Part shown: piece by piece, positions 21,301 to 41,472 of the stretch | Layout of the letters: each line of letters opens with the position of its first letter | How positions within the stretch are numbered: the stretch's first letter is position 1 | Source: a virus | Virus record (IMG/VR): IMGVR_UViG_3300029681_000010 | Length of the DNA: 42,262 nucleotides | Reading direction: 5' to 3' (one strand) | Notes under the pieces: model-generated | Databases searched by the model: none | What the model saw: only the letters and a program-made list of their open reading frames with translations | What the model was told of the DNA's origin: nothing | Position numbers and translations under genes: made by a program

Positions 21301-21698
21301 AGCTTCCGCACGGTGACGGCGGCATTGGTCACGCTGCCAGCTGCGCTAAGCGTCAGACGCAGCGTAGCCCTCGGAGAGTACCGAAGGAGCCGTACCGCAG
21401 CGGGGAAGGAAAGCGTCACCGACGTATCCGTAGCCGCCACGGTCGCCGACGCAGTCGCGCCGGGGATTGCTACGCCGTCCTGCAGGAGCGTAGCAGTGAT
21501 CGTTCCAGCCGCCGTTGGAATCACGGTAACGGATACATCCGCGTCATAGTATCCATCCCCGTTCAGGGAAATGGCATTCCCATTCAGCGTCGCGCCGCAT
21601 CCATAGCGACGAACAACGTTGCCGAGAGGAATGTCTCCGCCAGCGGCCACAGTGGTGGGAGAGGTCATCGCGGTAAAGAGGATCGAATTGCAGCTCAT
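21297..21698 (-). CDS. BclA C-terminal-like (C1q/TNF-like jelly-roll) domain protein, stand-alone
   Basis: 133 aa. RBS AAAGGAG. ISLNGDGYYDADVSVTVIPTAAGTITATLLQDGVAIPGATAS resembles the BclA-CTD core GFYKITVIA...LTIQVNGVPVPGTGSS, as recalled. The length matches that domain. Confidence 0.45.
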   Translation of the reverse strand: MSCNSILFTAMTSPTTVAAGGDIPLGNVVRRYGCGATLNGNAISLNGDGYYDADVSVTVIPTAAGTITATLLQDGVAIPGATASATVAATDTSVTLSFPAAVRLLRYSPRATLRLTLSAAGSVTNAAVTVRKL

Positions 21699-21713
21699 AA
21701 AAATACTCCTTTC

Positions 21714-21743
21714 ACAAAAACAGGCGGGGCTTTTGCCCCGCCT
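21714..21743 (-). terminator. Rho-independent terminator or attenuator after the 199-aa gene
   Basis: Minus strand: aggcggggc / aaaa / gccccgcct, then gtttttgtg. Confidence 0.7.
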
Positions 21744-21768
21744 TACTCATGCCCAGCAGGGGCAATGC

Positions 21769-22368
21769 TCAGATGTTACCGCAGCCGCAGCCATTCATCG
21801 CAAACTGAGGCACGATGCCGAACCCGTAAGGGTTCACGCGCGGAACGCCGCACATGGCGTTCTGGAGCGTCAGCTGGTTGATCTGGTTCTGCAGGCTCTC
21901 GATCTTGTTCTGAGCCAGCGCATCAAGAATCTTCTGGGTCTGCGCGGTCGTGGTGGCATTGATGCTCGCCGTGTTGATCGCACCGTTGTAGTTCACGCCG
22001 TCGATGGCGCGAAGCGTCTCGCAGCAACACTCCTGCTGGCGGGCGAAGCCAGAAGCCGTCGCCATCTGCAGATCGCGCAGCTCACCGAGGATGTTGTAGT
22101 TGCCGTCCTTGATCGCGCCGGCATTGTCGTACGCCGCCTGACGGACTGCCGCAACAGTCTCGTTGTTCTGCCGCTCCAGCGCGGCAAAATCAGTGGCGCG
22201 CTGGACATCGCCGACCGTGGCGTTGCGATCTCGATTGCCGCCGAAGTTGCCAAAGCCGCCGCCCATCAGCGCAAGGATCGCAAAGAGCCACAGCCCCTCG
22301 CCACCAAAACCGCCGAAGCCGCCGCCGCTCACCGCCGCGTAATCAGCAGGAGACATAGAGTCGTTCAT
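21769..22368 (-). CDS. Hypothetical membrane protein with Gly/Phe-rich N-terminus, CCC motif and CGCG C-terminus
   Basis: 199 aa. RBS GGAGGG. Contains GGGFGGFGGEGLWLFAILALMGGGFGNFGG, then coiled-coil-like Q/N/A-rich sequence with QQECCCETL. Ends NGCGCGNI. Confidence 0.6.
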   Translation of the reverse strand: MNDSMSPADYAAVSGGGFGGFGGEGLWLFAILALMGGGFGNFGGNRDRNATVGDVQRATDFAALERQNNETVAAVRQAAYDNAGAIKDGNYNILGELRDLQMATASGFARQQECCCETLRAIDGVNYNGAINTASINATTTAQTQKILDALAQNKIESLQNQINQLTLQNAMCGVPRVNPYGFGIVPQFAMNGCGCGNI

Positions 22369-22416
22369 GTGTGTTCCCTCCGTTATTCATATTATTTTCA
22401 CGCGCGCTGTGAAAAT

Positions 22417-22656
22417 TCACGAAAACTGAGAAAGGATCGTCTGCGGATCCACGCCCTGAGACTGGCACATTGCATAAAATGTTTGCTGGAGATTCCCTCC
22501 ATTCAGCTGTCGGATCTGATTCAGCATCGGATTCTGATTCAGGATCTGTTGCATTGCCAGCGCAGGATTCTGTGCAGCCTGATATGCGTGATACATCTGC
22601 ACGGCACGGGATACGCCGCTATTCTGCCCGTTCAGCTGCTGCAGGATGGGATTCAT
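22417..22656 (-). CDS. Q/N-rich small protein with three NP-x-L-x-Q repeats
   Basis: 79 aa. RBS GGAGG 9 nt upstream. The start lies 38 nt inside the preceding gene, in another frame. Confidence 0.5.
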   Translation of the reverse strand: MNPILQQLNGQNSGVSRAVQMYHAYQAAQNPALAMQQILNQNPMLNQIRQLNGGNLQQTFYAMCQSQGVDPQTILSQFS

Positions 22657-22918
22657 TCAGCGCCGCCTCCAATCTTGAAATCCGTTCAGCCAGCGCCGCC
22701 AAGTCAACCGGAGGCGCGTCTACATGGGGTGCAATGTCGTAAGGCGTCGCCGTCTTGTACCCAGCTCCGTCTGTTTGGCAAAGCCACACGATCGGCGCAG
22801 TCTCGTCCAGCAACAGCTCACTGCAGTTTGGCGCCATCTGATAGGCGTTCACGCCGCCGCGCCCGTTGACGCGTACGATCTCGCGTCGCTGGTATGCGGG
22901 CGGATACCCATACATCAT
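22619..22918 (-). CDS. Hypothetical protein (first gene of the int-proximal cluster)
   Basis: 99 aa, MMYGYPPAYQRREIVRVNGRGG.... The C-terminal segment LAALAERISRLEAAL is helical. RBS GAAAGGA. Confidence 0.55.
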   Translation of the reverse strand: MMYGYPPAYQRREIVRVNGRGGVNAYQMAPNCSELLLDETAPIVWLCQTDGAGYKTATPYDIAPHVDAPPVDLAALAERISRLEAALNESHPAAAERAE

Positions 22919-22990: not shown

Positions 22991-23022
22991 GGCGCAAAAA
23001 AGGAGGGCATAAAGCCCTCCTT
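22991..23022 (-). terminator. Strong rho-independent terminator ending the long late transcript
   Basis: Minus strand: aaggagggc / tttat / gccctcctt, then ttttttgcgcc. It abuts the stop of the 84-aa gene. Confidence 0.8.
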
Positions 23023-23276
23023 CAATTTGTGCCGATGATCCCGTATGAGATCCCGTCAGCAATCTTTCCGTATGCTCTTCGTCTGCAATTTTTGATCGTG
23101 TCAGGAGAAACAAACAGATCCATCGCCACGTCTACGCAACTTCGCCCGCGCACATCGCACTCGATGATGCACGCCTCCTCCATGGGCGGCAGATCAAACG
23201 CCTTGACGTAGTCCACCGCCCGCTGAGGAGCCATTCGTGATAGCCTTGCTCTGATCTCCCTATGCTGTGCGTTCAT
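23022..23276 (-). CDS. Small sigma-70 region-4-like / LuxR-type HTH regulator
   Basis: 84 aa. EEACIIECDVRGRSCVDVAMDLFVSPDTIKNCRRRAYGKI fits the region-4 HTH pattern. RBS GGAGGGG. Confidence 0.55.
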   Translation of the reverse strand: MNAQHREIRARLSRMAPQRAVDYVKAFDLPPMEEACIIECDVRGRSCVDVAMDLFVSPDTIKNCRRRAYGKIADGISYGIIGTN

Positions 23277-23360
23277 CCATTCCCCTCCGCGCCGTGAGCC
23301 TGCGGAGCTTTCGCGGGGGAGCGGGGTCGGCGTATCGTTGCCCGCTCCCCGCCCAGAGGG

Positions 23361-26300
23361 TTAATGCCACGGAGCGTCTGCCAGCTGTTTTTCTCCGTAG
23401 CCCTTCATTCGATAGAGCGCGTCCTTCTGTGCCGTGGAGATGTTCATCTTGTTGATCGCCTCCAGCACAAACTGCTTCTTCTCGATCTTCCCGTCGCCGT
23501 CGGTATCCTCGCCCTTGACCGCGTTAAGATCCTTGTACGCCTCCGCAAAGGTTTTCTTGTCGAATCCTGCCTCGGAGCCGTAACTCTGGTACGCTTTGAC
23601 GATGGAATTCGTCGCGTCAGAAACTCCAGCGTTTTTCCAGTCGTACACCGTAGCTTTCAGCTCCGCATCTTCCGCAGACAGTCCGCCGACATTTTGCAAC
23701 GCCCGAATTACCTCTCGGCGAGAAATATTCCCGTCAGCGTATTCGTCGGCAAGATCGTCGTACGAGAATCCGTAGGACTGCTTGAATTCCTGCTGTTTAA
23801 TGACGGTCTCCGCATCCTCGCGGCTGAACCCGACGTCTTCAAGCTGTGAGAGCATATCGCTTCCACCAGCGTTCTTGATGGCGTTCTTCATGCCGGTCTT
23901 GATCTGCTTATCAGTATAGCCCTTACTGATAAGATCGGCATAAATCCGGTCGTATGCGGCCTTATCATCCTGCAATGCGTGATAGAGGATTGAGTAGTAC
24001 CGCGAGGTGTTTTTCGCGTCCGGAGCGACTCGGTAGATCATCTGCTCCATCTGATACATCGCCCAGTAACTGCCGGTCTCCTGCGCGATGCTTCGCGCCA
24101 CCGCCCAAGTGTCGCGCCCGATGTTGCCGACGGAAACGCCGAAGATCTTACTGCCAGTCACCAGAAGCTGCTTGAATGCATAGAGCGGAGTTTTCTGCCC
24201 ATCACCCTGTGCGGCCTTTGTAAACAACTGTGCCGCAGAAATGAAGTCCGAGACCGCGTCCGCATCCATGCGGGATACTGTGTAGCCCTGGAGCATGGAC
24301 TTGATGTCCTTGGCGAACGGAATCCGTCCTACGGGGTCGATGTTGTCCCACAGGTTACTGCCCAGCAGGACGCTGACGACCGTGTCGTCCTCTCCGGTTA
24401 CGCCGGTCAGAACCTCGAAGTATCTTCCCCAGTAATCCTTGTCCTTATCATCCTTCCGCGCCGCGTCGACGAGGGACTGGACAAGCGCGTTTACGCCGTC
24501 GGTAACCAGCAACGCGATGCTCGTCCGAGCAAACTGCTTCAGAGCCGCGCTCTTCTTGCTGGGATTGGTTTCATAACGCCACGCGTCATAGGCCCTGAGG
24601 AGCATATTCAGGGACTTCATCGGTTCGCCCATAAATGCGGTGGCCTGTTTCGTCAGGCCGTTCCCGCTGCGCATGATCTGCGTGCGCTGGAGGATACCGT
24701 CAACGACCTGCGACTGGTCGATTACGTCGGAAAACACCTCTGCCGTGCGCGTGTAAAACTCCTCGCTCCCGACTTCATAGCGCCCTTCCTTCTGCACGGT
24801 ATACTCACACGCGTTCCAGATCTTGCCCCACGTCACAGCGTCGGCCTTTGCCGCCGCCGCACTGGATGCGTCGCTGAGCTTGTCCATAAAGGTCTGATCC
24901 GCGCCGTTGAGGATGCCCTTCATGATCGTGTACTGCCCGGCCTGATCAAATCCGGACGAATCCTTGATGGCGGCGATGCCCGCATACTGCTTAGCCTTTT
25001 TCCAGCCATTCCCCTTGGTGGGGGCTTTGACAAGCCCCTTGGCCATGTCGCTGGGATCGATGATCGCCGCCGCACGGAAGAATGCCGTGGGCTGCTGGAG
25101 CACCACGCGGGCGTTCATGCCGACGCTTGCGGCCTTCGTCCTGCCGACAAGCTTCTCGATCATGCGCGTGATCGGCTCATCATCGTGGGCGATGCCGTTC
25201 TGCACGTCACTCATGAGGTTTCGCCAGTACTTCAGCGCCTGTTCGCCGTAAACATCCGTCAGCACATTCTTGACGTTCTTGCCGGTAAGGTTCCCGGCAG
25301 AGTCGCGGTAGCGATAGTTAAAAAGACGGTTGATGTCCTCCATCGGTTCGAGCATTGTGCTGTAGGTAATCATGTCGCTTGCGTTTTTCGTGAAAACGTC
25401 AAACACTCCGCCAAGATCCAGCGCGTTGCTGGCGTTCTCGTTCAGGGCTTTCGCGCTGCCCATGTTGCGGATCTCGCGCGGCATATTTTCGCCGCGTTCA
25501 GCGTTCTGCACGATTGCCTCTCGCGCCGACTTGATCGGCCAATAATGCTCCTCGGTAAACTTGTTGTACCCATACACGGCCATGCTGGACTCGTTGCCCC
25601 ACTTGGCAAGCATGGTAGACGCGATTTTCTGCAGTCCCTTTGCGACCTTGATCTGCTCATCCGTCAGGACATCAGTGATCTGAGCCACATCGCTTGCAGT
25701 GAGAGGAATGCTCTTCGTGCCGCGCTCGATGGCCGGCAACTTGCCGTCGCGCTTGATGTAGGGCTGTATAACGCCGCCGACAGAGAGGTGCTGCATCGAG
25801 TGCTTCCCGCGATTCGCGAGGTTGTAAAGGTTCATGATCTGGTCATTCGTCAGCGTGATCGTCTGCCCGCCCTCGGTCGTAAACGTATGCCGCTCGTTCC
25901 GCTGTTTATAGACCTCGCGGCTCATGAACTTCTCCGTCAGCTTCGCGACCTCTGCGACCCTGCGGTTCTGCGTGTCCTCCGCATTCCGCAGAGCGCGGAA
26001 CACGTCCAGACCAGCATCACCATATGCGTTGAAAAATGTGCGCGGATCGTAAAGGCTGAGCGCAGCCTTCTTGTTCGTCCGTTTGCGGCTACTTACGCCG
26101 CTCCTGAGATCGTTTGCCCACTGGGAGATAAACATATACTTCCCGCTTGCAAGTGCCTTGTCGTAGCTTGTGATGGTCGTCTCGATGCCCTTGATGGCCT
26201 TCCAGATGACATTCAGCTGGGCGGTATTCATCTCGTCGATGCGCTGATTGCCCAGCTGGACGAGTTGATCGATAAACCCGCTCGTCCCGTCACCGCCAAA

Positions 26301-29300
26301 CAAAGCCGGATCGATAACAAAGTTCGGATCATTGGAGAGGATCGAGTCGTACGCCTCGCGCAGTCTGATCGCATCCTGCGTGCGCTTGGTGGGTGTCCCG
26401 TTGTTCCCGCTCCGCAGCCTGCCGTTTTCGTCGTAGCTTCTGGCGCTCTCCATATTGATGCTACGCAAGAGTGCGGCAACGGGCATCCGCAGGCTCTCCG
26501 GGATGTGTTGCTTATCCGTTGGGCGGAGCAACTTCCGAGAGAGCGTTTCGGTGTGCCGCGAGATCTTGGCTCGGATCTCTCTGGCCTTTCGCCTTTCCGC
26601 TCCGGCCTTCGTTCGCTCGGCATAAGCTGTGCGCATCTGCTTGATCTTCTCGTCGCGACCAGCCCGCGTCTTGCTGAGCAGATCCTTCAGGTGTGCGATC
26701 TCCTGCTCCTTCCGGTCTGCGTAGGTAGGTCTTGTCTGCCGGACATCGTCGCTGATCATGCCCTCAATCAGCGCATTGCCAAGTGCCTTTATCGCAATGT
26801 CGCGGTACTCATCATAAGGATTCGACCAAATGCTGTCGATATCCTCCAACACCTCGCCCATGCGCGTAAGCTGATCCGCCGGATGCACGATGTTCTCCGG
26901 GAAATAGCCGCCGCCAAACAGTTCTGTCAGCTCGTGATATGCCACGTCAACAGGGAGGCCGCCGTCCTTTGCAAACTTAATGTCACGGTGTTCCTTCTTC
27001 CATGCCAAAAAATCCGGGATGGATCCGTCATCCGTATACGCCAGCTTGACAGACTTGAGATGTTTTTGGATCTCCAGCAAGTCCTCGCCGCCCTCCTCAA
27101 GCACACGGGAATTCTGGATGATCTTTTCTGCCACATACTCTGCATAAGCGTGGAGATCTGTGTCAGGGACATCCTGCGATAGAAGAGCCTTGCCGATGTT
27201 CTCCATATCCGTCTTGATCTCGCTGTACTTCGTCGAGCTGTCGAAATCACTGATAAGCCGATTGCCGAGTTTCTTCAGATCTCCCTCGCGGAAGCTCGGC
27301 ATAGAGGGCTTGACTTCCGCTTTCCACCGTGCCACCTGCCGCTCAAGCGATTTCACGCGCGTCTTGAGCCGGTCGCGCTCCTTCTTGATGTCGCGCATTT
27401 CCGAATCGATCTGCGTCTGAGACTTGAGCTGAAATCTCGCGTTGTCCACACTGTTTACCGCATTCAACCTACCTGTTTCGTCTCCCGCAGGATACTCGAT
27501 AACGCGAACGCCAGCATCCGATAAAGACTGGCGAATTTCCGCACTGGAATTATCCGGAATTACTGCCGCAAGCACTTCATTAAACCCTACGGCTCTTTGC
27601 GGTTTCGCTTCGAAGTAGCCCGTCGGAAGTTCAGCCGCCGCTCGGAACACCTCGCGGATTTCGCGGGCGGTGCTTTCGCTGATGGAATACCCCTCCTGCG
27701 AGAACGCCCGTCGGATGGCTGCTTCTGTCTGCTTACCCTGCGCGGCCTGCATCATCACGTCGCCGATGATCTGCATCTCATCGAACTGGTTGTCCGAGTG
27801 CGCCTTGTTCTCGCGCATGACCGCCCGCGTGGCCTGCTCGATGCGCTTTTCCACTGCGTCCACGTCGGCCTTGTACTGCTCCGTGTCCACATTGCCGAGC
27901 CTGCCGCTCGCGGCCTTCACCGCGTCGATGCTCTGGAAGTCCTCCGTGCTGACCGCCTGCATGGCCTTCGCCGACGCGCCGAACGTCTGCCCGCCGCGCT
28001 CTGCCTGCGTCTCGGTCATGGCGCGCACGATGTTCTCCAGCGTGTACCCCCAGTGCAGCTGTGAAAAGCTCCGCCGGTTGCCGCTCCGGTCGAAGCGCTC
28101 CGAACCGTTGTAAATGCCCGGCTCGCCCAGCACGCCCTCCAGCTGCGGCAGCAGCCATGCCTTCACGGCCTCAGCGCTCGCCGCTTCATGGAGCTTGTCG
28201 CTGGTCGCCCACCGGTCGATCTCGCTCGTCGTCGCGCCCTGATCCTGATAGTATTCCCACGCGTTTCGGACGAAATTCTCCACCGTGTATGTGTGGACAT
28301 TGTTCTCCATGAAGTAGTTGATCCGCTTCTCCTTCTGCTCCGGTTTCCGGTCGAGGAATCTGCGGTGCTGCTCTTCGTAGCTGTCGCGGATGATCTGCCG
28401 CACCGTATCCTCGATCTCCCGCACCGGCTGATAGTCGCCCGTCTCCATGCTGGCTTCGATGCTGCCCAGCTCCTGCACGCCGATTTTCTGCACCAGCTTC
28501 GCCAGTGCGTCATTGCCGTATCGGTTGAACTCCTTTGCCTGCATGACCGGCTCCAGCGTTTTCCCATGATCGGCCAGATAGGCCGCGCGGATGCTGTCAT
28601 CCCGCGCGAGCTTGTCCGCCAGCTCCGGCGCGCTCATACTGCTCTCTTCGACAACGCCTGCGCGCTGCAATGCGCTGTCATTGCGGAATACGCCGCCCGC
28701 GACCTTCTCGCTCAGCCTCGCGAGTCGTTTTTCCACGGCGCGCATTCGGTCGTAGTTCACTGGATATTCCACCGCCGGGGCCGTCGGCGTATACGCGTCG
28801 CCGCCGTAGATCTTGTTCCGGCTGTCCGTCTGCGGGTCGATGCTCTCGCGTCCGAACACGATGGAGATCGGCCCGTACATGCTGTGTCCCTGCGCCGCCT
28901 TGACGACCGCGATGCTCGGCATCGGCAGTCCGCCCAACTTCATCGCATCCCGCAGGTTCTGTTCCGTCAGGTTGTGGACGGCCACGAGATCCTTTGTCTG
29001 TTCTACCGGTGCTCGCAGGGAGAATTTTTCTTTTACTCCCCGCTGATCCTGTGCGCCTGCTCCAGAACTTCCTCGTCCGTTACCGTCTCCTTTGACAGTA
29101 GATACTCGACCATATCCATCTGCTGAACTTCCTTCTTCAGAAGCAAACACACTACCATAGCTTTTCCTTTGCTTATCTCGAAGTGTTTTAAACACCCGAT
29201 TAAGAGTTTCTGCGCCTCTGTTAAAACCATAATCGAACTCCTTCCTGGCTGCCATAAGCGTCTGATGGTCAGATAATGCGGCTTTACCCCCAGAAGCATA

Positions 29301-32084
29301 CAGCGGCGTAGCTTCCGTACCGTCTCCGATCCCATACAACGCGAACACCTGTACGCCTTTTTCATCAGCATACAGCCATTTCGTTGATTCGTCAAGATAC
29401 TGTTCGGAACTTTCAATCTCTTCCGTCATCCGCCGGTTCAGAAGATTCCATTCCGAGCGGTTGAGATCCGGCCGCCAGTATTTCTTGCGGATCTGCATTT
29501 TCGAGGTGCCATCGGCGTTTGTTTCCGCTTCATCGCTTGTATCGGCGACCGTCTCTGCCGCCTTGTCATACGCCGTCTGCCAAAGGTCTGCGATCTTCTG
29601 CAGCTCCGCGAAGTTTTTGCCGTAAGCCTCCTGCGCTGCCTTATTGCGCTTGGATGCAACAAGGCCCTTGACCTTGGAGATAAACTCCTTCAGCCGGTCA
29701 AGGAGGGTCTTCGCCGCCGTTCGGTTTTTTGCCGCGAACCGCTCAAAGAGGTCAGCATCATTGAGCATCTCTGCTGTGAAATCCGCCGCGATCTCGTCCA
29801 TGGCCTCTTCCTGCGTCAGCGTCACGCCAGCCTCGCGGCTTGCGTCGCGGTAGCGCTCTACCATATGCGCCGCCGTGTCATCCCCCAGCTCGTTCGCGCG
29901 GTATGCCATCACCGCGTCGCGATACGCGTGGTATTCCGTGGGCGCGGCATCCTGCATCCGGTGCGTCACCTCATGCGCCGCGACAAAGGTGAGCGGGTTG
30001 TCCGCGTCCGCCGCAAGCTGGATCGTGTTTGTTTTACTGACGTACTTGCCGTTCGCCGCGCCGCCCTGTACCTGTGGGACGATCTCAATCCTTACGCCCA
30101 TGTCGCTTGCCAAAGCCCCCAGTACGCGTGCCGTTCCGGCGTCTTTGTTGGCAAGATTCCGGCTGTAATCGTTGTCAGCAAGCCCGGCATCACCGGAGCG
30201 CGTAACCAGTTTCACCCCGGCCTTTTCCCGCGCAAGGCTGCTCGCCGCGTCCGCAAGCCCCGCCTGATATGCCGCCGTCTGTACGGATGGGGGGATATAC
30301 TTTGCCGCGTCGCTCTTCACGTCGGTCAGCGCTTTCCCGCTCAGCCCCGCCTGATACATCGAGGTAAAGCCCGTGCGGAGGCGCGGGTTGCTCCTCACGG
30401 CCTGATTCTGCTGTACCTGCGTCCACGCGGCGCTGCCGTTTTCACCGAGTCCGGTGTCGGAGCGGAAACTCTGAAGCCCGTCTGCCGCGCCCTGATTCCA
30501 CGCAGCGGTGCGCTGCGCGTCCGTCAGATCGTCCGCAAACGTCCCACGTTTCTCGGTTACGACACCGGCGCGGCCATCCTCATACGCCTCCTGCATCCCC
30601 AGCAAATAGCGGCTTACATCTCCCCCGGCATAGGAGTCGACAAAGACGTTCGCCGCCCCGGCATTGGCCGCGCGGTTAATTGCGCCCTCATAAAGGTCTG
30701 CGGTATTCCGATCCGCAAACGTTACCTTGTCAGGGGAGACGATGTCGCCGGTTTCCATCTCGATCTGCCCGCCTTTTACGATGGACTTAATCGCAGACTC
30801 ACTGCCGCCGACCGTGGTCTTCCCGTCCTCCTGTGTTTGATACGTCCCCTTTACACCGGAGCGGTCTCTCACCATCTGCTGCGCCTGTTCATAGCGCTTG
30901 CTCTGCTTCTCGATCTGCTTGTTATAGACGCTGTCTGCGGCTTTCCCAGCCGCCATCTGTGCGCCGGAAAGAATGCCTCCGACGGCAAACCCTTCCGCAA
31001 ACTCCTGTGCGGATGTCACGGGGTTAAAGATCGCGCGGTCGTCCGAAAGTGACGCGATAGGATTGTCTGCGCCGTACACAACGTTCTGCATTGTGCGCCC
31101 GACAGGCCCTTGCCAGATTTCCTCCATGCCCTCCTCTGCGGCGCTGCGCAGGAGATTCTTCACGCTGAATCCCTTCGGAACGTTTTGGATACCGCCGCCA
31201 ATCTCAATCACCGAGTTGAGCAGACTTGTGCCGATGGCGTAGTTCATGGCCTCGGACGTGCTTGCTCCGTCGGACAGGGCTTCCTGATAATCCGACCCGA
31301 CCTCGGACGCAAACGCCGTCCAGTAATTTTTAGACGTCAGCGTGTCGCGGAAGCCCTTGCCAAGCGTACTGAGGATGCCGGAGCTTTCGACAACGGATGC
31401 CCCAAGATTTGCAAGTGCCTCTGTCGACGTTGCCACGCCGTTGACAATGGGTGCGACGGCTGCCACTCCGGCAGTCATTGCCATCGGAATCGCGCCGCCA
31501 ACGCCGTATGCAATGTCACCGCCATAAGATGCCGCTTTCTTCGCGGCCTTCCCGGCGATGGTGGAGTCGTTGATCTTGGAAACCTCCTCCTCGCGCTCCG
31601 CGTCAAGGTATGCCTTATTTTGCTCGATACCCACAAGACCGTTCTCGCCGAGGAATTTCCAGTCAGGCCGTCCGTGGTACAGCGCGTTAAAAAGCCCGCT
31701 TCCCTTGGTGTTCGCCCCCTGAAAGATCGTGTCTATTACAGACGTCACGGCGTCCTCGGCCATCGCTCCCGTAGCCGCAGAGATGCTTGCCGCCCCAGCC
31801 AGAAGCGTTTTGCCGAGGTTTTCAAAATACTTCCAGCCGTTAAACTTGCCCTTGCTCTCCTGCCGCTCCTTCGCGGGGTCGATCCGCTGCGACGGGAGGC
31901 TGACGGTGGGCTGCGCCGCTTCGCGCTCTTTTCGCGCCTGGATCCGCTGAGACAAAAGCTCCTGCGCAAGAGCGGCCTGTCCGCTCATGCTCTGCGTGCT
32001 GGTTTGCGTCGCCGCAGACTGCGGATCCTCGCGCTTCTTCTTACGCTGCTGCAGCAGCTCCACCGCCAGATCGTTGTTGGTCAT
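23361..32084 (-). CDS. Giant multidomain virion/ejection-type protein (about 2,907 aa) with zincin HExxH motif; polyvalent-protein-like
   Basis: Uninterrupted 8.7-kb ORF. The start is set at MTNNDLAV (ATG 32084, RBS GGGAGG). HEVTH lies at nt 29961-29975. Residues about 110-400 contain Gly/Ala-rich hydrophobic segments. The EF-hand-like loop DTDGDGKIEKKQ is at nt 23472-23507. The remainder is unassigned. Confidence 0.8.
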   Translation of the reverse strand: MTNNDLAVELLQQRKKKREDPQSAATQTSTQSMSGQAALAQELLSQRIQARKEREAAQPTVSLPSQRIDPAKERQESKGKFNGWKYFENLGKTLLAGAASISAATGAMAEDAVTSVIDTIFQGANTKGSGLFNALYHGRPDWKFLGENGLVGIEQNKAYLDAEREEEVSKINDSTIAGKAAKKAASYGGDIAYGVGGAIPMAMTAGVAAVAPIVNGVATSTEALANLGASVVESSGILSTLGKGFRDTLTSKNYWTAFASEVGSDYQEALSDGASTSEAMNYAIGTSLLNSVIEIGGGIQNVPKGFSVKNLLRSAAEEGMEEIWQGPVGRTMQNVVYGADNPIASLSDDRAIFNPVTSAQEFAEGFAVGGILSGAQMAAGKAADSVYNKQIEKQSKRYEQAQQMVRDRSGVKGTYQTQEDGKTTVGGSESAIKSIVKGGQIEMETGDIVSPDKVTFADRNTADLYEGAINRAANAGAANVFVDSYAGGDVSRYLLGMQEAYEDGRAGVVTEKRGTFADDLTDAQRTAAWNQGAADGLQSFRSDTGLGENGSAAWTQVQQNQAVRSNPRLRTGFTSMYQAGLSGKALTDVKSDAAKYIPPSVQTAAYQAGLADAASSLAREKAGVKLVTRSGDAGLADNDYSRNLANKDAGTARVLGALASDMGVRIEIVPQVQGGAANGKYVSKTNTIQLAADADNPLTFVAAHEVTHRMQDAAPTEYHAYRDAVMAYRANELGDDTAAHMVERYRDASREAGVTLTQEEAMDEIAADFTAEMLNDADLFERFAAKNRTAAKTLLDRLKEFISKVKGLVASKRNKAAQEAYGKNFAELQKIADLWQTAYDKAAETVADTSDEAETNADGTSKMQIRKKYWRPDLNRSEWNLLNRRMTEEIESSEQYLDESTKWLYADEKGVQVFALYGIGDGTEATPLYASGGKAALSDHQTLMAARKEFDYGFNRGAETLNRVFKTLRDKQRKSYGSVFASEEGSSADGYGRVSTVKGDGNGRGSSGAGAQDQRGVKEKFSLRAPVEQTKDLVAVHNLTEQNLRDAMKLGGLPMPSIAVVKAAQGHSMYGPISIVFGRESIDPQTDSRNKIYGGDAYTPTAPAVEYPVNYDRMRAVEKRLARLSEKVAGGVFRNDSALQRAGVVEESSMSAPELADKLARDDSIRAAYLADHGKTLEPVMQAKEFNRYGNDALAKLVQKIGVQELGSIEASMETGDYQPVREIEDTVRQIIRDSYEEQHRRFLDRKPEQKEKRINYFMENNVHTYTVENFVRNAWEYYQDQGATTSEIDRWATSDKLHEAASAEAVKAWLLPQLEGVLGEPGIYNGSERFDRSGNRRSFSQLHWGYTLENIVRAMTETQAERGGQTFGASAKAMQAVSTEDFQSIDAVKAASGRLGNVDTEQYKADVDAVEKRIEQATRAVMRENKAHSDNQFDEMQIIGDVMMQAAQGKQTEAAIRRAFSQEGYSISESTAREIREVFRAAAELPTGYFEAKPQRAVGFNEVLAAVIPDNSSAEIRQSLSDAGVRVIEYPAGDETGRLNAVNSVDNARFQLKSQTQIDSEMRDIKKERDRLKTRVKSLERQVARWKAEVKPSMPSFREGDLKKLGNRLISDFDSSTKYSEIKTDMENIGKALLSQDVPDTDLHAYAEYVAEKIIQNSRVLEEGGEDLLEIQKHLKSVKLAYTDDGSIPDFLAWKKEHRDIKFAKDGGLPVDVAYHELTELFGGGYFPENIVHPADQLTRMGEVLEDIDSIWSNPYDEYRDIAIKALGNALIEGMISDDVRQTRPTYADRKEQEIAHLKDLLSKTRAGRDEKIKQMRTAYAERTKAGAERRKAREIRAKISRHTETLSRKLLRPTDKQHIPESLRMPVAALLRSINMESARSYDENGRLRSGNNGTPTKRTQDAIRLREAYDSILSNDPNFVIDPALFGGDGTSGFIDQLVQLGNQRIDEMNTAQLNVIWKAIKGIETTITSYDKALASGKYMFISQWANDLRSGVSSRKRTNKKAALSLYDPRTFFNAYGDAGLDVFRALRNAEDTQNRRVAEVAKLTEKFMSREVYKQRNERHTFTTEGGQTITLTNDQIMNLYNLANRGKHSMQHLSVGGVIQPYIKRDGKLPAIERGTKSIPLTASDVAQITDVLTDEQIKVAKGLQKIASTMLAKWGNESSMAVYGYNKFTEEHYWPIKSAREAIVQNAERGENMPREIRNMGSAKALNENASNALDLGGVFDVFTKNASDMITYSTMLEPMEDINRLFNYRYRDSAGNLTGKNVKNVLTDVYGEQALKYWRNLMSDVQNGIAHDDEPITRMIEKLVGRTKAASVGMNARVVLQQPTAFFRAAAIIDPSDMAKGLVKAPTKGNGWKKAKQYAGIAAIKDSSGFDQAGQYTIMKGILNGADQTFMDKLSDASSAAAAKADAVTWGKIWNACEYTVQKEGRYEVGSEEFYTRTAEVFSDVIDQSQVVDGILQRTQIMRSGNGLTKQATAFMGEPMKSLNMLLRAYDAWRYETNPSKKSAALKQFARTSIALLVTDGVNALVQSLVDAARKDDKDKDYWGRYFEVLTGVTGEDDTVVSVLLGSNLWDNIDPVGRIPFAKDIKSMLQGYTVSRMDADAVSDFISAAQLFTKAAQGDGQKTPLYAFKQLLVTGSKIFGVSVGNIGRDTWAVARSIAQETGSYWAMYQMEQMIYRVAPDAKNTSRYYSILYHALQDDKAAYDRIYADLISKGYTDKQIKTGMKNAIKNAGGSDMLSQLEDVGFSREDAETVIKQQEFKQSYGFSYDDLADEYADGNISRREVIRALQNVGGLSAEDAELKATVYDWKNAGVSDATNSIVKAYQSYGSEAGFDKKTFAEAYKDLNAVKGEDTDGDGKIEKKQFVLEAINKMNISTAQKDALYRMKGYGEKQLADAPWH

Positions 32085-32104
32085 AGTTGCCTCCCTCGCT
32101 CGCG

Positions 32105-33133
32105 TTACTTCTTCTTGTGGAACGTGATTGTCTTCTTGCTGTTGTCCCACGTTGCGGTCGCAGTTCCGTTCTGGAGCATCTTAATCAGCTCAGTTTCACC
32201 GTATCGGCTTCCGCCTTCAAGCTTGATCCATCCGTTACCGGATCGATTTGTGATGGTATACTCGTTGATCGGCCTATAGCCGCTCTCATATGCCGCCTGA
32301 GTCTGAGCGCCCCAAATGCCGTCCTGCGTGAGACCAGCCGCCATCTGGATCTGCTTGATCTGATCGGACGAGTACCCGTGGGTGTCGTAGCTCTTGCTGG
32401 ATCTGCGAGAGCTGGACGAACCACTGCGGCTAGAACTGCTTGCCGCCGCCTTCTGAGCCGCAAGCTGAGCCTGCTCCATTGCCATCTGCTGGTTAAACTG
32501 CCTGACGTTCTCGTCATACTGTTTTTGCCACTGCGCGTCTGAGATCTGATCCCTGTAGTCCTGATAGGCGTAGCTTTTTGCGTCGCCGTATCGGCTGTAA
32601 TCAAGCTGCCGCTCGGCATCGTACCGATTCGCGGCGTAATCGCGCTGGTTTTGCCAGTCGCTCATCTTATCCCGATGCTCTCCGTACTCCTTCGAGTACC
32701 TGTCCGCGAGGAGGGAGTACTGCGTCTTGAGATCGTCGCCCTCCGCGTTATAACGATCCAGAGCCATCTGATACAGCTCCGGCACAACGTCGTTGAGGCT
32801 CTGCAGATACGCGTTATACTGCTGCTGCCCGGCGCTTTGGCTGTATGTCGAGCCATACCCGCCGGTAAGCGCCGCCGCCTGTCCCATCGTATCCTGCATG
32901 GCCTGCTTGCCCTGCTGGACGTATCGATCCTTGTACTGCTGATAGAGCGCGTCGCCGTTCAGGTCGTACTTAAATTTTTCGCGGTTCTGCAGTTTGCTGA
33001 GCGCGTCCTGCATCTGCTGGCCATACGTCCCGCCGTTCCACTCGCCCGGCTTCCGTGCGTCCGCCTGCTGGAGCTGATTGTACAGATCCCTGACGCGCTC
33101 GCTCTCCTCATAGTCTTTGTAGCTAAACGCCAC
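32105..33133 (-). CDS. Q/Y/D-rich protein with Ser-rich linker and partial peptidoglycan-binding-like C-terminal motif
   Basis: 342 aa. The C-terminal IKQIQMAAGLTQDGIWGAQTQAAYESGY resembles the second half of a PG_binding_1 repeat. Lies between the endolysin and the giant gene. Confidence 0.6.
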   Translation of the reverse strand: MAFSYKDYEESERVRDLYNQLQQADARKPGEWNGGTYGQQMQDALSKLQNREKFKYDLNGDALYQQYKDRYVQQGKQAMQDTMGQAAALTGGYGSTYSQSAGQQQYNAYLQSLNDVVPELYQMALDRYNAEGDDLKTQYSLLADRYSKEYGEHRDKMSDWQNQRDYAANRYDAERQLDYSRYGDAKSYAYQDYRDQISDAQWQKQYDENVRQFNQQMAMEQAQLAAQKAAASSSSRSGSSSSRRSSKSYDTHGYSSDQIKQIQMAAGLTQDGIWGAQTQAAYESGYRPINEYTITNRSGNGWIKLEGGSRYGETELIKMLQNGTATATWDNSKKTITFHKKK

Positions 33134-33871: not shown

Positions 33872-33872
33872 C

Positions 33873-38938: not shown

Positions 38939-39721
38939 TTAACCTCCGATCCAGCGGAACGTAATCCCGCTTGTAAAATTTACGTCCCACTTGCCTGCGC
39001 CCGTGATCCGCTCCAGTTCAACGTGCGTGACATGCAGTGCACCGTTGGAGAAATACGCGATCTCCGTACCCTCGACGTAAAACGACAGCTTCTTGCTCGT
39101 CCAGACCGACATATTGTGACTGGTGTCGATCACGTCGTATGTCTTGCCGCCCACACTTTGCGTGCCGGTCGTCTGGATGTTTTGCCCGATGGCGATGCCG
39201 ATGACCGGGACGGTGTCCTCATAGCCGACGATGCCCTGCCGGATGTATCCGGTGGTCTCCGTCCTGTATGCCAGCAAGCCCTCGATATCTCCGGCCTGTC
39301 CGTCGATCCGTCCCTCTAACTCGCTGACGTACTGGATGCTCTGCGTCACATCCTCTGCCGTTGCCGTAAACTTTGCGTCGACTTGCTCCTTGTACTGTCC
39401 AAACTCGCTCTTGGCGAGGTAGCTGCTCTGCAGCTCGGCCTCGACGCGCTGCACCTCGCTGCGCACGGTATCTGCCGTCTTGATGATCAGGCTTTTGAGG
39501 GCGTTGGCGCTCGCTCCGATCTCCTGCCGCGTCTGATCCTGTGCCGCCTTTTGCGCTCCGGATCCCAAAGCGGTCTTTGCCGCATCCGTCAGACTGTCTG
39601 CCTCGATCGCGTTGAGAGATTCGTTAAGCTGCCTCGCCAGCGCATAAAGGTATCGCCGTACGCTGAGCAGCTGCTCGGTCTGCCCGCCTTGGATCGTCGG
39701 CGGGGTCGGGATAACTACCAT
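38939..39721 (-). CDS. Coiled-coil tail protein (needle/fibre-like)
   Basis: 260 aa. A long helical N-terminal half and a beta-rich C-terminal half. Overlaps the upstream gene by 7 nt. Confidence 0.55.
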   Translation of the reverse strand: MVVIPTPPTIQGGQTEQLLSVRRYLYALARQLNESLNAIEADSLTDAAKTALGSGAQKAAQDQTRQEIGASANALKSLIIKTADTVRSEVQRVEAELQSSYLAKSEFGQYKEQVDAKFTATAEDVTQSIQYVSELEGRIDGQAGDIEGLLAYRTETTGYIRQGIVGYEDTVPVIGIAIGQNIQTTGTQSVGGKTYDVIDTSHNMSVWTSKKLSFYVEGTEIAYFSNGALHVTHVELERITGAGKWDVNFTSGITFRWIGG

Positions 39722-41472
39722 CCGAGATCACTCCCCAGCTCAAGAATTTTCGCGATGGAAAACACCCTCACGACGCCCTTGCCGGAGAGCTTAAGCCGCA
39801 TATGGTCGCACCGCCGGGGGATCACGGGCACCGTAAACGTCCCATGGCCCTTTCGCCGCACTGTCCCCGCCTCGCGCCAAATGCCGTCGGAGTCATACAT
39901 GCAGTATAGCCGCAGCTCCCCGCCCTGCTCAATCTGGAGCCGGATGTTATAGCGGCTCAGGTATTTTTTGTCGGGGTAGTCGTACCCGATCACGCCCGTC
40001 TCCGCAGACCACTCGGGAGCGTCCTCCGGCGTGCCCTGCGTGCCGTTGACGCACATCATCCACTTGGTGTCCGCATCGATGTAAAACAGGTCATCGTCCA
40101 TCCGTGCGAATACAAGCGCGTGTGTATTGTCCTCCCGATGCCACATTGCCCGGTTTGCGTCGTACACAAAGAGATGCCATGCCGAGCCATCGTACATGCT
40201 GATGTAATACTTGCCGCACACGCACCCCGCAGTCGCCTTGCTGTATAGCACATCGCCAAACGCCGCCCCAATCGACGTGGGGAAACTCCCGTCGTACGCG
40301 CATACATCCGTGCGGGACTTGTAAAGAAGCATCTCGTTGACTACGCACAGGCTGCGCCAGCTGCCGTTTTGCACGCCTCGCGCCGCCGTCTCAACGACCT
40401 GATGCCCCCCGGAGGATGCGACGGAAATCCGGTGGATCACGTCCTCTTTAAAAAACGTGGGATATCCCTGATAGTTGATCGCACCCGTCCACGCGCCGTC
40501 CGAACCAACAGATGCCGCCCAAGCGTCCGTCGACACGCCGGCATAGACTCGCCAGTTCTTGAAATCGCCGAGCTTGCAGCAGTACAACTCATTAACGGTC
40601 TTGCCGTCCACCATGCCGTACTTGCATCCCCAGATGCGGTTTTGCGCCTCGCAGACATAGTCCATGTCCGGCACGCTGCGTGCCGCCTTAACCGGGCCGC
40701 TCTCCTGCGTGTAAGTCAGGTCGATCAGCCCGATGACCACGATCCAGTCATCGCCCTTGCTCTGCACGACCTTTGTGCCGTTTAGGTCCTCATACTGCGC
40801 CTTGACGGCCTCGCTGTCTCCCCCGTAGGCGATGCCGCTGATCTCCAGCCCGTCGCCTTCGGCAAAGGCCTTGCCGATCCCGTCTGCCGAGATCTTGGTG
40901 TAGACCGTCGCGACACCCATCCACATGCTCTGCGACGCGGAGTACGTCATCAGCTGGTGTGGGGTCTGCGTCGTATCGATCCAATACTCGCCGCCTGTCG
41001 GATTCTCCGGCTGCGTAAGCGGGATATCTCCCATCGCTTTGCCATCCATTGTGCTCAGCGAGTATACCACGTTGCCGGTGCTCTCCCACGACGCCTCAAG
41101 GCTCCCGCAGTCCGTCACATCCTTGGTGTTGAGATACACCTTGTCCGGCCAGATCACAAGGTATGCCCCCATGCTGACCATCTGCTTGTCGCCGTCGCTC
41201 AGCGTCAGCCCGGTGATCTCCTTCCCGTTGTAGTACAGCTTGCCCCCGTCGACCACGGCCATCGCGTCCTTTGCCAGCATCCCGCCCGGAGCGGTCAGCT
41301 GCTGCACCTTGCCGCGTGCGGGTCTGCTCATCAGAAGCGGATACCCGCTCGACGTGAGGTTTGTCATGTCGTAAAACTCGCCGTCGCTGATCCTGCGGTT
41401 GTGGTTGTACCCTCCAAACACGGACAGCATCTCGCGGCTCTGGCTCGTCTCGGTGAGCGTCGGATTATACAT
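39715..41472 (-). CDS. Large tail structural protein (nozzle/tail-tubular candidate)
   Basis: 585 aa, beta-rich. Directly follows the connector-like gene. The function is inferred only from position. Confidence 0.5.
   Translation of the reverse strand: MYNPTLTETSQSREMLSVFGGYNHNRRISDGEFYDMTNLTSSGYPLLMSRPARGKVQQLTAPGGMLAKDAMAVVDGGKLYYNGKEITGLTLSDGDKQMVSMGAYLVIWPDKVYLNTKDVTDCGSLEASWESTGNVVYSLSTMDGKAMGDIPLTQPENPTGGEYWIDTTQTPHQLMTYSASQSMWMGVATVYTKISADGIGKAFAEGDGLEISGIAYGGDSEAVKAQYEDLNGTKVVQSKGDDWIVVIGLIDLTYTQESGPVKAARSVPDMDYVCEAQNRIWGCKYGMVDGKTVNELYCCKLGDFKNWRVYAGVSTDAWAASVGSDGAWTGAINYQGYPTFFKEDVIHRISVASSGGHQVVETAARGVQNGSWRSLCVVNEMLLYKSRTDVCAYDGSFPTSIGAAFGDVLYSKATAGCVCGKYYISMYDGSAWHLFVYDANRAMWHREDNTHALVFARMDDDLFYIDADTKWMMCVNGTQGTPEDAPEWSAETGVIGYDYPDKKYLSRYNIRLQIEQGGELRLYCMYDSDGIWREAGTVRRKGHGTFTVPVIPRRCDHMRLKLSGKGVVRVFSIAKILELGSDLGW

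Follow-up and report, generated by a model that had tools for sequence, protein, structure and literature searches.

The 2,907-aa protein encoded towards the end of the late operon of this phage is, judged by its domain content, a phage-type polyvalent protein, and it brings to this known class a frame that has not been described before, in which two constant blocks enclose a swappable centre; neither this constant-frame organisation nor the RFSLK-type motif associated with it was found in PMC5512222 or in a literature search. We favour, at a probability of roughly 0.6, the reading that the protein is a late-made, packaged and ejected polyvalent delivery frame with exchangeable effector cassettes. 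The DNA that we analysed (the window, 42,262 nt) is a circular assembly, its bases 1-95 recurring at 42168-42262, of the ~42.2-kb genome of a temperate phage of gut Oscillospiraceae. The giant gene takes up 8,724 of the 42,167 nt (20.7%), in line with an earlier sequence-only reading that had put it at one fifth of the genome. The gene and its surroundings are as follows.

23361..32084, minus strand: giant polyvalent-protein gene, 2,907 aa plus stop (ATG at 32084, stop codon 23361-23363)
32090..32097, minus strand: ribosome-binding site GAGGGAGG, read directly, with a 5-nt spacer to the ATG at 32084-32082
32105..33133, minus strand: 342-aa partner gene, directly upstream, with homologues in distant loci and a PG_binding_1-like motif
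39715..41472, minus strand: gene for a 585-aa protein matching phrog_511 ('internal virion protein'), with homologues beside the partner and giant genes in distant phages
22996..23350, minus strand: operon end, comprising a hairpin without a T-run (23316-23350), an 84-aa ORF (23022-23276) and an intrinsic terminator (22996-23020)

The earlier reading had described a single 8.7-kb open reading frame with a good ribosome-binding site and had named no strand. The frame is real and lies on the minus strand, where it is open without a break over 23361..32150 (2,929 codons counted from a GTG); by our own arithmetic, the chance of 2,907 open codons is ~1e-45 at the ~3.5% stops per random codon of this composition. 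The ATG lies 20 nt beyond the TAA of the upstream 342-aa gene. An identical protein is present in nr under the name 'MAG TPA: nuclease [Caudoviricetes sp.]', and a protein search of nr gave 732 homologues at E<=1e-5. Comparison of the late region with 50,697 phage records by megablast returned no match, and a search of the whole protein against PDB sequences returned low-complexity helical noise only.

The giant gene shares strand and operon with the terminase, portal, capsid, tail and lysis genes and, as had been read before, lies downstream of the lysis cassette, being preceded by a holin (33873-34346), an endolysin (33164-33913) and the 342-aa ORF. No convincing terminator or promoter was detected between the upstream gene and the giant gene, which is the second-to-last of the operon and is followed by the 84-aa ORF and then by the intrinsic terminator. 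In sister phages the gene order terminase-portal-capsid-tail-lysis-partner-giant is identical. Together, the co-orientation with late genes, the 20-nt gap and this identical order argue for late, virion-linked expression of the giant protein. The product of the 84-aa ORF is GerE/sigma-70 region-4-like (GerE E=0.0039); its homologue in a distant locus (L019) is 64% identical and annotated Sigma70_r4, and the gene is kept in two sister phages whose cassettes differ. No tail-tube, sheath, tail-chaperone or tape-measure families were found among the late-operon genes scanned, which makes the tail-tube-less virion proposed earlier, and a short tail as predicted from gene content, plausible.

The gene directly upstream emerged as a conserved partner. 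Its 342-aa product has a Gln/Tyr/Asp-rich N-terminal region and a Ser-rich linker, followed by a PG_binding_1-like motif (LTQDGIWGAQTQAAY) that matches PG_binding_1 at E=0.0012 and, over the same residues, PDB 4lpq at E=6e-4. Homologues with 31-39% identity lie upstream of the giant gene in four distant loci, immediately so in three of the four, and this linkage of a ~350-aa partner gene to the giant gene has not been described before. Homologues of the 585-aa protein with 30-35% identity adjoin the giant-gene module in L019 and in a second distant locus, L013, and the 585-aa protein is a possible third member of the module. Within the giant protein itself we delimited the following features.

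29547..32084, minus strand: constant N-block, aa 1-846 (BLAST segment map)
31362..31517, minus strand: most hydrophobic Gly/Ala/Ser/Thr-rich segment, aa 190-241 (Kyte-Doolittle peaks 1.15-1.64)
29655..30182, minus strand: zincin-like metallopeptidase domain, aa ~635-810 (invariant columns, AF2 topology)
29484..29501, minus strand: punctuation motif 1, KMQIRK, aa 862-867, degenerate here, at the end of the N-block
29028..29546, minus strand: variable slot A, aa 847-1019 (breakpoints aa ~846 and 1024; pLDDT <50)
29013..29027, minus strand: punctuation motif 2, KFSLR, aa 1020-1024, at the start of the PBECR5 cassette
28332..29030, minus strand: PBECR5 domain, aa 1019-1251 (Pfam PF18814, E=4.5e-69, 233 bits against a 25-bit cutoff)
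27438..28331, minus strand: PBECR5-associated region, aa 1252-1549, which co-travels with PBECR5 in other phages
27423..27437, minus strand: punctuation motif 3, RFQLK, aa 1550-1554, at the start of the constant C-block
23364..27437, minus strand: constant C-block, aa 1550-2907 (1,358 aa; BLAST segment map, HMMER search)
23865..26687, minus strand: C-module core, aa ~1800-2740 (~950 aa; exhaustive HMMER search, alignment, AF2)
23364..23864, minus strand: C-terminal helical tail, aa 2741-2907, with a non-canonical DxDxDG loop

The class of polyvalent proteins was established by computation in 2017, by Iyer, Burroughs, Anand, de Souza and Aravind (J Bacteriol; PMC5512222), and the earlier description of the giant protein as polyvalent-protein-like is borne out by its PBECR5 domain, a signature domain of that class. 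The protein resembles the class in being a giant multidomain product of a phage late or virion gene setting, in carrying a putative HExxH zincin-like domain, a counterpart of which is the hub domain of the class, and in the domain mosaicism of its orthologues, as in H. pylori jhp1044 (PMC5512222). Unlike the class, it has no LPD domain (none at E<=0.1) and no Pfam MPTase-PolyVal match; the LPD domains that the earlier reading associated with such proteins appear only in more distant relatives of the C-module, some of which carry LPD3. LPD domains are frequent in polyvalent proteins, not obligatory. An NCBIfam search of the giant protein gave nothing, and ~70% of it, that is, the N-block outside the zincin-like domain together with the C-block, has no Pfam family, so that the protein is indeed mostly uncharacterised, as had been stated.

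The frame became apparent from the BLAST segment map, in which recombination breakpoints fall sharply at aa 846, 1024 and 1550. The N-block is 84-99% identical across sister phages, whichever central cassette they carry (53-60% identity is retained over aa 397-867 in the 50%-identity clade), and all sister proteins resume 93-98% identity exactly at aa 1550. The centre is hypervariable: the 119 close relatives, encoded by syntenic sister phages, display at least 21 architectures of it. The enzyme domains swapped there are unrelated, measure 213-999 aa and bring protein length to between 2,548 and 3,317 aa among the relatives examined. Other occupants of the same slot in close relatives are ART-PolyVal, an ADP-ribosyltransferase, or the RNase domains MuF_C or PBECR3, and some sister phages carry domains without known function in this position. 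In one sister protein the variable slot is filled by MuF_C, which belongs to the PBECR domains. These dozens of syntenic sister phages, which differ almost only in their enzyme cassette, constitute a natural experiment.

The cassette of the phage studied here had escaped the sequence-only reading, which regarded an HEVTH motif as the only catalytic signature and missed the PBECR5 domain, by far the strongest match in the protein. His1036, at the catalytic position, and Pro-Ser 1055-1056, with its putative catalytic alcohol, are invariant in an alignment of nine homologues that includes Gram-negative phages, and GG1050-1051 is likewise conserved between Clostridia and Gram-negative phage homologues. 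A BECR-fold endoRNase is expected to have a His in an N-terminal helix and a Ser/Thr in a late strand, and we predict the PBECR5 domain to be a metal-independent endoRNase of this fold. Matches obtained with tblastn extend over aa 1031-1553 in Acinetobacter phage Ab9 and Bacteroides phage BF1-TP2, and over aa 1033-1394 in Cobetia phage Carin1. The PBECR5-associated region also matches positions 1600-1888 of phrog_22978, with a pLDDT of 70-90 in part.

At the cassette boundaries stands a short motif, D-x-[RK]-[FY]-S-L-K, that we refer to as the punctuation motif. In 149 representatives that are pairwise <=50% identical it occurs 161 times, compared with 15.5 +/- 3.6 times in shuffles (~10-fold enrichment), with a median spacing of 216 aa and with Ser, Leu and Lys present at their respective positions in 98%, 89% and 90% of the regex matches. 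At the position of motif 1, relatives read GRYQIK or ERYSLK. The residues flanking the motif are acidic or rich in Pro, Gly and Asn and are predicted to be disordered, and the AF2 models are of low confidence around the motifs. We rejected a role as a general site of prohead-protease cleavage, since the motif occurs in none of the 16 other late-gene products checked of the same phage, the capsid, scaffold-position and portal proteins included.

The HEVTH motif itself was confirmed at nt 29961-29975, corresponding to aa 704-708, and together with E717, E759, D763 and E764 it is invariant or nearly so in the alignment. The AF2 model of this region comprises three strands, the HExxH helix and a helix bearing the acidic residues (pLDDT 65-83), an arrangement compatible with the MPTase hub domain, in which the HExxH helix and a later Glu helix pack on a 3-stranded sheet, and sub-threshold profile matches were obtained to Zn_peptidase, Zincin_2, Peptidase_M64 and DUF6782 (E 0.003-0.1). 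The earlier proposal of a metallopeptidase is thus favoured by an invariant motif, by the predicted topology and by these profiles, but it finds no counterpart in Pfam MPTase-PolyVal (PF18818), nor does the region match any curated peptidase family. The best zincin-related Foldseek match of the model was PprI, at E=0.98, and Foldseek searches of the PDB with both AF2 models (N-block/zincin and C-module) gave nothing at E<0.1; the N-block/zincin model is shallow (pLDDT 60) because a further homologue search, started from a distant relative of the N-block, gave only seven proteins. An HMM of the zincin region matches 108 of the 149 distant family representatives, 94 of which have HExxH.

The zincin-like domain and the punctuation motif occur together (odds ratio 5.5, p=1.3e-5), the domain ending ~50-60 aa ahead of the first motif; the strict motif is missing in 33 of the 108 zincin-bearing representatives. 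In the reading that we favour, the zincin would act in cis, cutting at the punctuation motifs and freeing the cassettes in the new cell. Another possibility, to which we give a minor share of the probability, is that the frame is packaged and stays uncleaved, in which case the motif could demarcate modules or mark a recombination joint, as VENN does in CdiA, or could correspond to a conserved opening beta-strand of each module, and the zincin could be directed, as an effector, at the proteins or the cell wall of the host. Two of the cassette-exchange breakpoints, aa 1024 and 1550, fall on motifs, which is in keeping with this, as is the fact that the Pfam PBECR5 model already begins at the motif; furthermore, N4 vRNAP, ArdC and TraC1 are transferred unprocessed despite their metallopeptidase domains (PMC5512222), and a muralytic role has been proposed for the peptidase of phi24B (bioRxiv 10.64898/2026.04.10.717836). 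Against it, the flanks of the motif are predicted to be disordered, as in exposed linkers, the motif keeps company with the zincin, and the three junctions in the protein studied here differ in sequence, offering little nucleotide homology for within-genome recombination. An APIM-type peptide identical to the [RK][FY]SLK termini binds the bacterial beta-clamp (PMC7261172), and it might be supposed, more speculatively, that termini released by cleavage also target the host sliding clamp.

The blocks on either side of the cassettes suggest how the protein might be delivered. Gly/Ala-rich hydrophobic segments near the N-terminus, noted earlier, are present, and their hydrophobic character is conserved in relatives; the strongest, aa 190-241 (peak 1.64), may contain membrane-inserting helices. 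The C-module belongs to a family of 4,096 50%-identity clusters (exhaustive HMMER search) and is modelled by AF2 as mostly helical with small sheets (pLDDT 77.6, pTM 0.65); its invariant residues are K2317, Q2331, R2337, K2374, D2415, W2419, Q2459 and D2462. It has no Pfam or NCBIfam family and, by fold (Foldseek) and by sequence profile, no match in the PDB, where the profile picked up nothing beyond low-complexity helical noise. Its 84 BFVD matches are mostly C-terminal pieces of giant viral proteins; a weak one is to a protein of Tenacibaculum phage Gundel_1 labelled 'structural protein', a label that is not traceable to proteomics in the paper on that phage. Any role for the C-module is a guess, since its fold matches nothing solved. 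A Peptidase_M23 domain is often found in distant C-module proteins and, together with the PG_binding_1-like motif of the partner, suggests a link to the cell envelope. A module of ~950 aa with ~4,100 clusters, outside both family collections and with no PDB relative, marks a large blind spot in phage annotation.

Gene context and two analogues, phi24B gp47 and N4 vRNAP, lead us to infer that the giant protein is packaged and ejected. Direct virion evidence for polyvalent proteins is only now appearing: phi24B gp47 (2,811 aa; LPD5, LPD1, LPD38 and MuF-C) was detected in abundance by proteomics of virions, has no visible counterpart in the cryo-EM map and has been proposed to be encapsidated and ejected (bioRxiv 10.64898/2026.04.10.717836). 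It shares with the protein studied here its giant size, its polyvalent character, its origin in a temperate podovirus and a gene location at the distal end of the late genes (for gp47, the end of the deposited genome record); unlike it, gp47 has no punctuation motif, comes from a phage of a Gram-negative host and shows no detectable sequence or profile similarity. In N4 vRNAP (gp50, 3,500 aa) the N-terminal ~1,000 aa serve injection, the enzyme is central and the C-terminal ~1,400 aa, which include a zincin, serve encapsidation (PMC5512222). The giant protein has a similar tripartite layout, whereas its zincin is in the N-block, it has no RNAP domain and it shows no HMM similarity to N4 vRNAP (hhalign probability 1%). 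N4 vRNAP is co-ejected with two smaller proteins, and the 342-aa and 585-aa proteins are candidate counterparts of these.

PBECR5 is also found in giant proteins of Acinetobacter phage Ab9 (2,839 aa), Cobetia phage Carin1 (gp32, 2,854 aa) and Bacteroides phage BF1-TP2 (gp68, 3,633 aa), and those of Ab9 and BF1-TP2 share the ~300-aa associated region as well (25-26% identity). In Ab9 and Carin1 the giant gene belongs to an internal-virion-protein block, after genes for a nozzle/tail protein, small internal proteins and a lysozyme-like protein. The Carin1 record bears the label 'structurally identified and validated'. Unlike the protein studied here, these three lack the punctuation motif and are unmatched by the C-module and zincin profiles; attempts to establish C-module or zincin homology to them, to phi24B gp47 or to N4 vRNAP failed in BLAST, HMM and hhalign comparisons.

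There are also points against packaging, namely that no homology of the giant protein was found to the packaged proteins compared (phi24B gp47, N4 vRNAP and, outside PBECR5, the giants of Ab9, Carin1 and BF1-TP2), that a profile search found no Phage_Mu_F (PF04233) or portal-binding domain in it, and that its gene follows the lysis cassette. The spot after the lysis cassette, near the prophage end, is typical of accessory 'moron' genes, and in an integrated prophage copy (L015) the giant gene lies ~2.6 kb from the prophage end. This position and the lack of a recognised packaging or portal-binding domain would suit a late-expressed effector that is not packaged and that acts in the producing cell (host RNA shutdown, anti-abortive infection) or, released by lysis, as a polymorphic toxin against neighbours. 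The hypervariable, toxin-like centre in a constant frame points the same way: MuF/SPP1-gp7 and CdiA/Rhs toxins likewise combine a constant delivery part, exchangeable RNase or ART domains and a short demarcation motif. In those toxins, however, the variable part is C-terminal and not central; the giant protein differs further in that none of the examined loci has an immunity gene after the cassette, and here no signal peptide was found and the 84-aa downstream gene is regulator-like. An effector whose synthesis is confined to cells on the verge of lysis would not be expected to come with an immunity gene. We consider a non-packaged effector unlikely. The giant gene is closely coupled in translation to the late operon, no separate promoter was detected for it, and one-fifth of a 42-kb genome is hard to justify for a factor acting only in a dying cell. 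In distant relatives, moreover, the gene, which is frequently divided into two, is embedded among the structural genes, ahead of those for baseplate, fibres and lysis, and its neighbours there include homologues of the 342-aa partner and of the phrog_511 'internal virion protein'.

Proximity to structural genes, as in the split gene pair just upstream of baseplate-like genes in locus L020, could also indicate a structural penetration device, that is, a tape-measure-like or tail/fibre protein with incidental enzymatic parts. The Gly/Ala-rich N-terminal segments resemble those of tape-measure proteins, and the Peptidase_M23 fusions of distant relatives are reminiscent of tape-measure and tail proteins with muralytic activity. 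We regard this as highly improbable: the protein matches no tape-measure, tail-tube or fibre family (Pfam, PHROGs, NCBIfam), none of the late-operon genes scanned matches a tail-tube, sheath or tail-chaperone family, a self-BLAST revealed no internal repeats, a ruler of 2,907 aa would by our estimate specify a tail of ~0.4 um, and swaps of 213-999 aa in the centre are incompatible with a length-determining ruler.

Packaging and ejection of a delivery frame, the reading that we prefer, would proceed as follows. The giant protein would be made late, and the capsid of this temperate and presumably short-tailed phage would take up a few copies of it, which would enter the next host before the DNA or together with it. 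The N-block, with its hydrophobic segments and zincin-like peptidase, and the C-block would form the frame around the cassettes, each introduced by a punctuation motif, here the putative PBECR5 endoRNase and its associated domain of ~300 aa. The constant blocks, with the PG-binding-like partner and the phrog_511 protein, would provide for encapsidation and for passage across the Gram-positive envelope, and the RNase would act on host or defence RNAs in the first minutes of infection. Should cleavage take place at the motif, and should the constant blocks serve for loading and ejection, the expenditure of 20% of a 42-kb genome on one gene would be explained, and there would be a testable rule for the delivery of anti-defence enzymes by phages of Gram-positive gut anaerobes as well as a scaffold for engineered protein delivery by phages. 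A bolder version, which we put forward tentatively and consider doubtful, is that the zincin N-block, RFSLK cassettes and C-module make up a widespread self-processing 'polyprotein cargo bus' that encapsidates itself, crosses the Gram-positive envelope and cuts itself at its motifs, setting free interchangeable enzymes directed against the host or its defences; the C-module would then be a new translocation or encapsidation fold and the motif a portable cargo-loading rule.

The C-terminal tail contains the loop DTDGDGKIEKKQ, at aa 2860-2871 (nt 23472-23507), near the C-terminus. The EF-hand-like loop reported earlier is therefore present, but it is neither canonical nor conserved. An EF-hand has a 12-residue loop with a bidentate acidic ligand at position 12 and flanking helices; here position 12 is Gln, and one clade of relatives has a longer loop while another has lost it, so that an EF-hand was ruled out. 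The AF2 model places a helix-loop-helix at this loop and leaves room for a DxDxDG-type metal site.

The open frame on the minus strand spans 23361..32150 of the window, and the giant gene begins within it at an ATG at 32084, 20 nt past the stop codon of the 342-aa gene before it, with a Shine-Dalgarno sequence (GAGGGAGG) 5 nt upstream, confirming the single 8.7-kb ORF with a good ribosome-binding site described in the sequence-only reading. An identical protein is already in nr, under the name 'MAG TPA: nuclease [Caudoviricetes sp.]'; homologues at E<=1e-5 number 732. Bases 1-95 of the window recur exactly at 42168-42262 (an assembly overlap), so the window represents a circular assembly of ~42,167 bp, and the giant gene occupies 20.7% of it, in agreement with the one fifth estimated earlier. 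As the genome is circular, the single long late operon on the minus strand wraps across the window ends.

Gene order in and just past the late operon
4267-5766, minus: large terminase, first in the operon
2391-4274, minus: portal, after the large terminase
minus: small peptidase, then a phrog_13908 protein, between portal and major capsid protein
32-1078, minus: major capsid protein
minus: two small proteins, after the major capsid protein
39715-41472, minus: phrog_511 'internal virion protein', 585 aa
minus: 260-aa protein, between the phrog_511 protein and the tail protein
37105-38937, minus: DUF859/Gp10_C tail protein
minus: collagen-like fibre protein, after the tail protein
34412-36340, minus: 642-aa protein with a tyrosine-phosphatase-like domain (Y_phosphatase3, E=4e-25)
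minus: holin, amidase endolysin, 342-aa protein (32105-33133) and giant gene, in this order, the last stretch of the operon
23361-32084, minus: giant gene, 2,907 aa from the ATG at 32084
22996-23350, minus: hairpin, 84-aa ORF and a strong, clean intrinsic terminator

The giant gene thus lies downstream of the lysis cassette, as had been noted. Among the late-operon genes scanned, none for a tail tube, sheath, chaperone or tape measure was detected, which makes a short-tailed virion plausible; the earlier claim of a tail-tube-less virion holds to that extent. The plus strand carries recombination, SSB, replication-initiation, DNA methyltransferase, repressor-like and large serine integrase genes, from which it follows that the phage is temperate. 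A sister genome sits integrated in a 149-kb bacterial contig, with the prophage end ~2.6 kb beyond the giant gene. The related loci are found in genomes of uncultured Oscillospiraceae and Clostridiales from the human gut.

The sole strong Pfam match of the giant protein is PBECR5 (aa 1019-1251, E=4.5e-69), a family derived from the polyvalent proteins described by Iyer et al. 2017 (PMC5512222), who predicted PBECR domains to be metal-independent endoRNases. This match bears out the description of the protein as polyvalent-protein-like, and it means that HEVTH is not the only catalytic signature to be read. Neither H1036, the His of the N-terminal helix, nor a GG...PS motif varies, even when homologues from phages of Acinetobacter, Cobetia and Bacteroides are included. 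HEVTH itself was correctly placed, at aa 704-708; AAHEVTHRMQ together with E717, E759, D763 and E764 is invariant or almost so among relatives, and an AF2 model of the region (pLDDT 65-83) has three strands, the HExxH helix and a helix bearing acidic residues. Five divergent copies of the region gave sub-threshold matches only, to Zn_peptidase, Zincin_2, M64 and DUF6782, and none matched MPTase-PolyVal. Taking motif, topology and sub-threshold matches together, we call this a divergent zincin-like domain, in which the motif is observed and catalysis is inferred. The LPD domains expected by analogy are absent from the giant protein in Pfam. Gly/Ala-rich hydrophobic segments do occur near the N-terminus (strongest at aa 190-241). 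The DTDGDGKIEKKQ loop was also rightly located, at aa 2860-2871 close to the C-terminus; its identity as an EF-hand was ruled out, as it has no acid at position 12 and is deleted in one clade of relatives. PHROGs assigned the protein to phrog_22978 (3,513 positions), a family of no assigned function that spans the C-terminal block as well as the zincin and PBECR5-associated regions.

When the 120 closest cluster representatives were placed on the giant protein, aa 1-846 (or 1-1024) and aa 1550-2907 kept 84-99% identity, whereas the centre was swapped wholesale. At least 21 arrangements of the centre, 213-999 aa long, occurred among 119 proteins; they contained ART-PolyVal, MuF_C, PBECR3, DUF3990 or no known domain, and the genomes around them were fully syntenic. 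A motif, D-x-[RK]-[FY]-[SQ]-[LI]-[KR], stands at every cassette boundary.

Copies of the punctuation motif in the giant protein
aa 862: KMQIRK, degenerate
aa 1020-1024, window 29013-29027, minus: KFSLR, start of PBECR5
aa 1550-1554, window 27423-27437, minus: RFQLK, start of the C-terminal block

In 149 representatives pairwise <=50% identical, a loose motif regex occurred 161 times versus 15.5 +/- 3.6 in shuffles, with Ser (98%), Leu (89%) and Lys (90%) dominating their positions within matches and with flanks rich in acidic residues, Pro, Gly and Asn. Median spacing was 216 aa, and the final copy lay a median of 1,470 aa from the C-terminus. The zincin-region HMM matched 108 of the 149; the first motif comes ~50-60 aa after the zincin, and the presence of one is correlated with that of the other (odds ratio 5.5, p=1.3e-5). 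The motif was absent from the other late proteins of the phage that were checked and from Gram-negative phage giants, and our literature search found no description of it. The [RK][FY]SL[KR] of the giant protein and its relatives is identical to the APIM-variant peptide RFSLK, the sole hit of that search, which is reported to bind the bacterial beta sliding clamp (KD <50 uM) and to inhibit growth when over-expressed (PMC7261172); this likeness may be coincidence.

In an exhaustive HMMER search, aa 1550-2749 matched 4,096 cluster representatives at E<=1e-3, 2,819 of them at <=1e-30. Nearly all of the 150 matches listed were proteins of 2,000-4,200 aa that matched over ~950 residues (aa ~1800-2740, the C-module) near their C-terminus. 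More distant relatives (~30% identity) were 900-1,850 aa long, often with a Peptidase_M23 domain and in some cases ART-PolyVal, LPD3 or MuF_C. Several phages split the protein into two adjoining genes; in three related loci (L012, L019 and L020) the N-part is 1,851-2,457 aa long and the C-module protein 1,031-1,737 aa, with the L019 split at about aa 1,940 of the giant protein and the L020 pair ahead of the genes for baseplate, fibre and lysis. Modelled with AF2, aa 1790-2907 gave a structure of reasonable confidence (pLDDT 77.6, pTM 0.65); it had no PDB match (best E=0.11) and matched 84 BFVD entries at E<=1e-3, those listed being mostly C-terminal pieces of giant viral proteins with nuclease, PolyVal ART, MuF-C or LPD-containing labels. 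Eight polar or aromatic residues (K2317, Q2331, R2337, K2374, D2415, W2419, Q2459 and D2462), invariant across 69 sequences at ~25-30% identity, could mark an active site or binding surface.

Four distant loci have a homologue of the 342-aa protein (31-39% identity) upstream of their giant gene, directly adjacent in three; in two of these loci, homologues of the 585-aa phrog_511 protein adjoin too. In the 342-aa protein, a helical N-terminus rich in Gln, Tyr and Asp is followed by a Ser-rich linker and, at the end, a PG_binding_1-like motif; the protein may be a co-ejected partner. Two smaller proteins beside one giant resemble the three-protein ejection sets of podoviruses, by analogy and not homology.

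The reading that these results favour most, to which we give a probability of about 0.6, is that the giant protein is packaged in the capsid and ejected. In this model, the constant blocks would form the loading and envelope-crossing apparatus, the zincin would act in cis to free the central cassettes at the punctuation motifs, and the effector of this phage would be its PBECR5 RNase. Packaging is suggested by the position of the gene in the late operon and of its relatives' genes inside structural modules, by the envelope link provided by M23 fusions in relatives and the peptidoglycan-binding-like partner, by the lack of an immunity gene after the cassette, and by precedents: phi24B gp47, detected by virion proteomics (bioRxiv 10.64898/2026.04.10.717836), the giant PBECR5 proteins of Ab9 and Carin1 in internal-protein blocks, and the N4 vRNAP (PMC5512222), none homologous to the giant protein outside PBECR5. 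We consider it unlikely that the protein is instead a late effector that stays unpackaged, or a toxin set free when the cell lyses. That a protein with exchangeable centres is a tape-measure or fibre protein seems highly improbable. If the protein is packaged, its motif might still be a joint or strand with no role as a cleavage site; the association with the zincin favors cleavage, and we regard this alternative as possible but doubtful.

The giant protein belongs to a known class, the polyvalent proteins, and cassette mosaicism among orthologues has been described for H. pylori jhp1044 (PMC5512222), so it is not new as a class. To our knowledge, there is no earlier description of the constant zincin/C-module frame, of the punctuation motif or of how large the C-module family is, and the three yield specific testable predictions.

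The 642-aa phosphatase-like protein occupies the receptor-binding position of the tail module. In sister phages, its gene and the adjoining collagen-like fibre gene are exchanged for another pair, one with CBM_5_12, which makes it a variable tail-tip or receptor-binding cassette with an unusual enzyme domain. Past the giant gene, the hairpin (10 bp, GC-rich, without a T-run) precedes the 84-aa ORF, whose GerE/sigma-70 region-4-like product may be a late regulator; a 64% identical homologue lies downstream of the giant and lysis genes in the distant phage L019. Between the late-operon terminator and the integrase, small minus-strand ORFs at 20815-22918, one weakly similar to BclA_C and one a DUF7841, are kept in sister phages as 98/78/199/133/157-aa genes, and a second strong terminator lies at 21722-21743. 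Since these are the final prophage genes before host DNA in the integrated copy, they are candidate lysogeny-expressed morons. The early region carries a DNA methyltransferase (16174-16974, plus strand), and sister phages have extra methylases, a PAPS-reductase-like gene and Lar-like restriction-alleviation genes; the lineage is thus heavily invested in anti-restriction beside the polyvalent protein.
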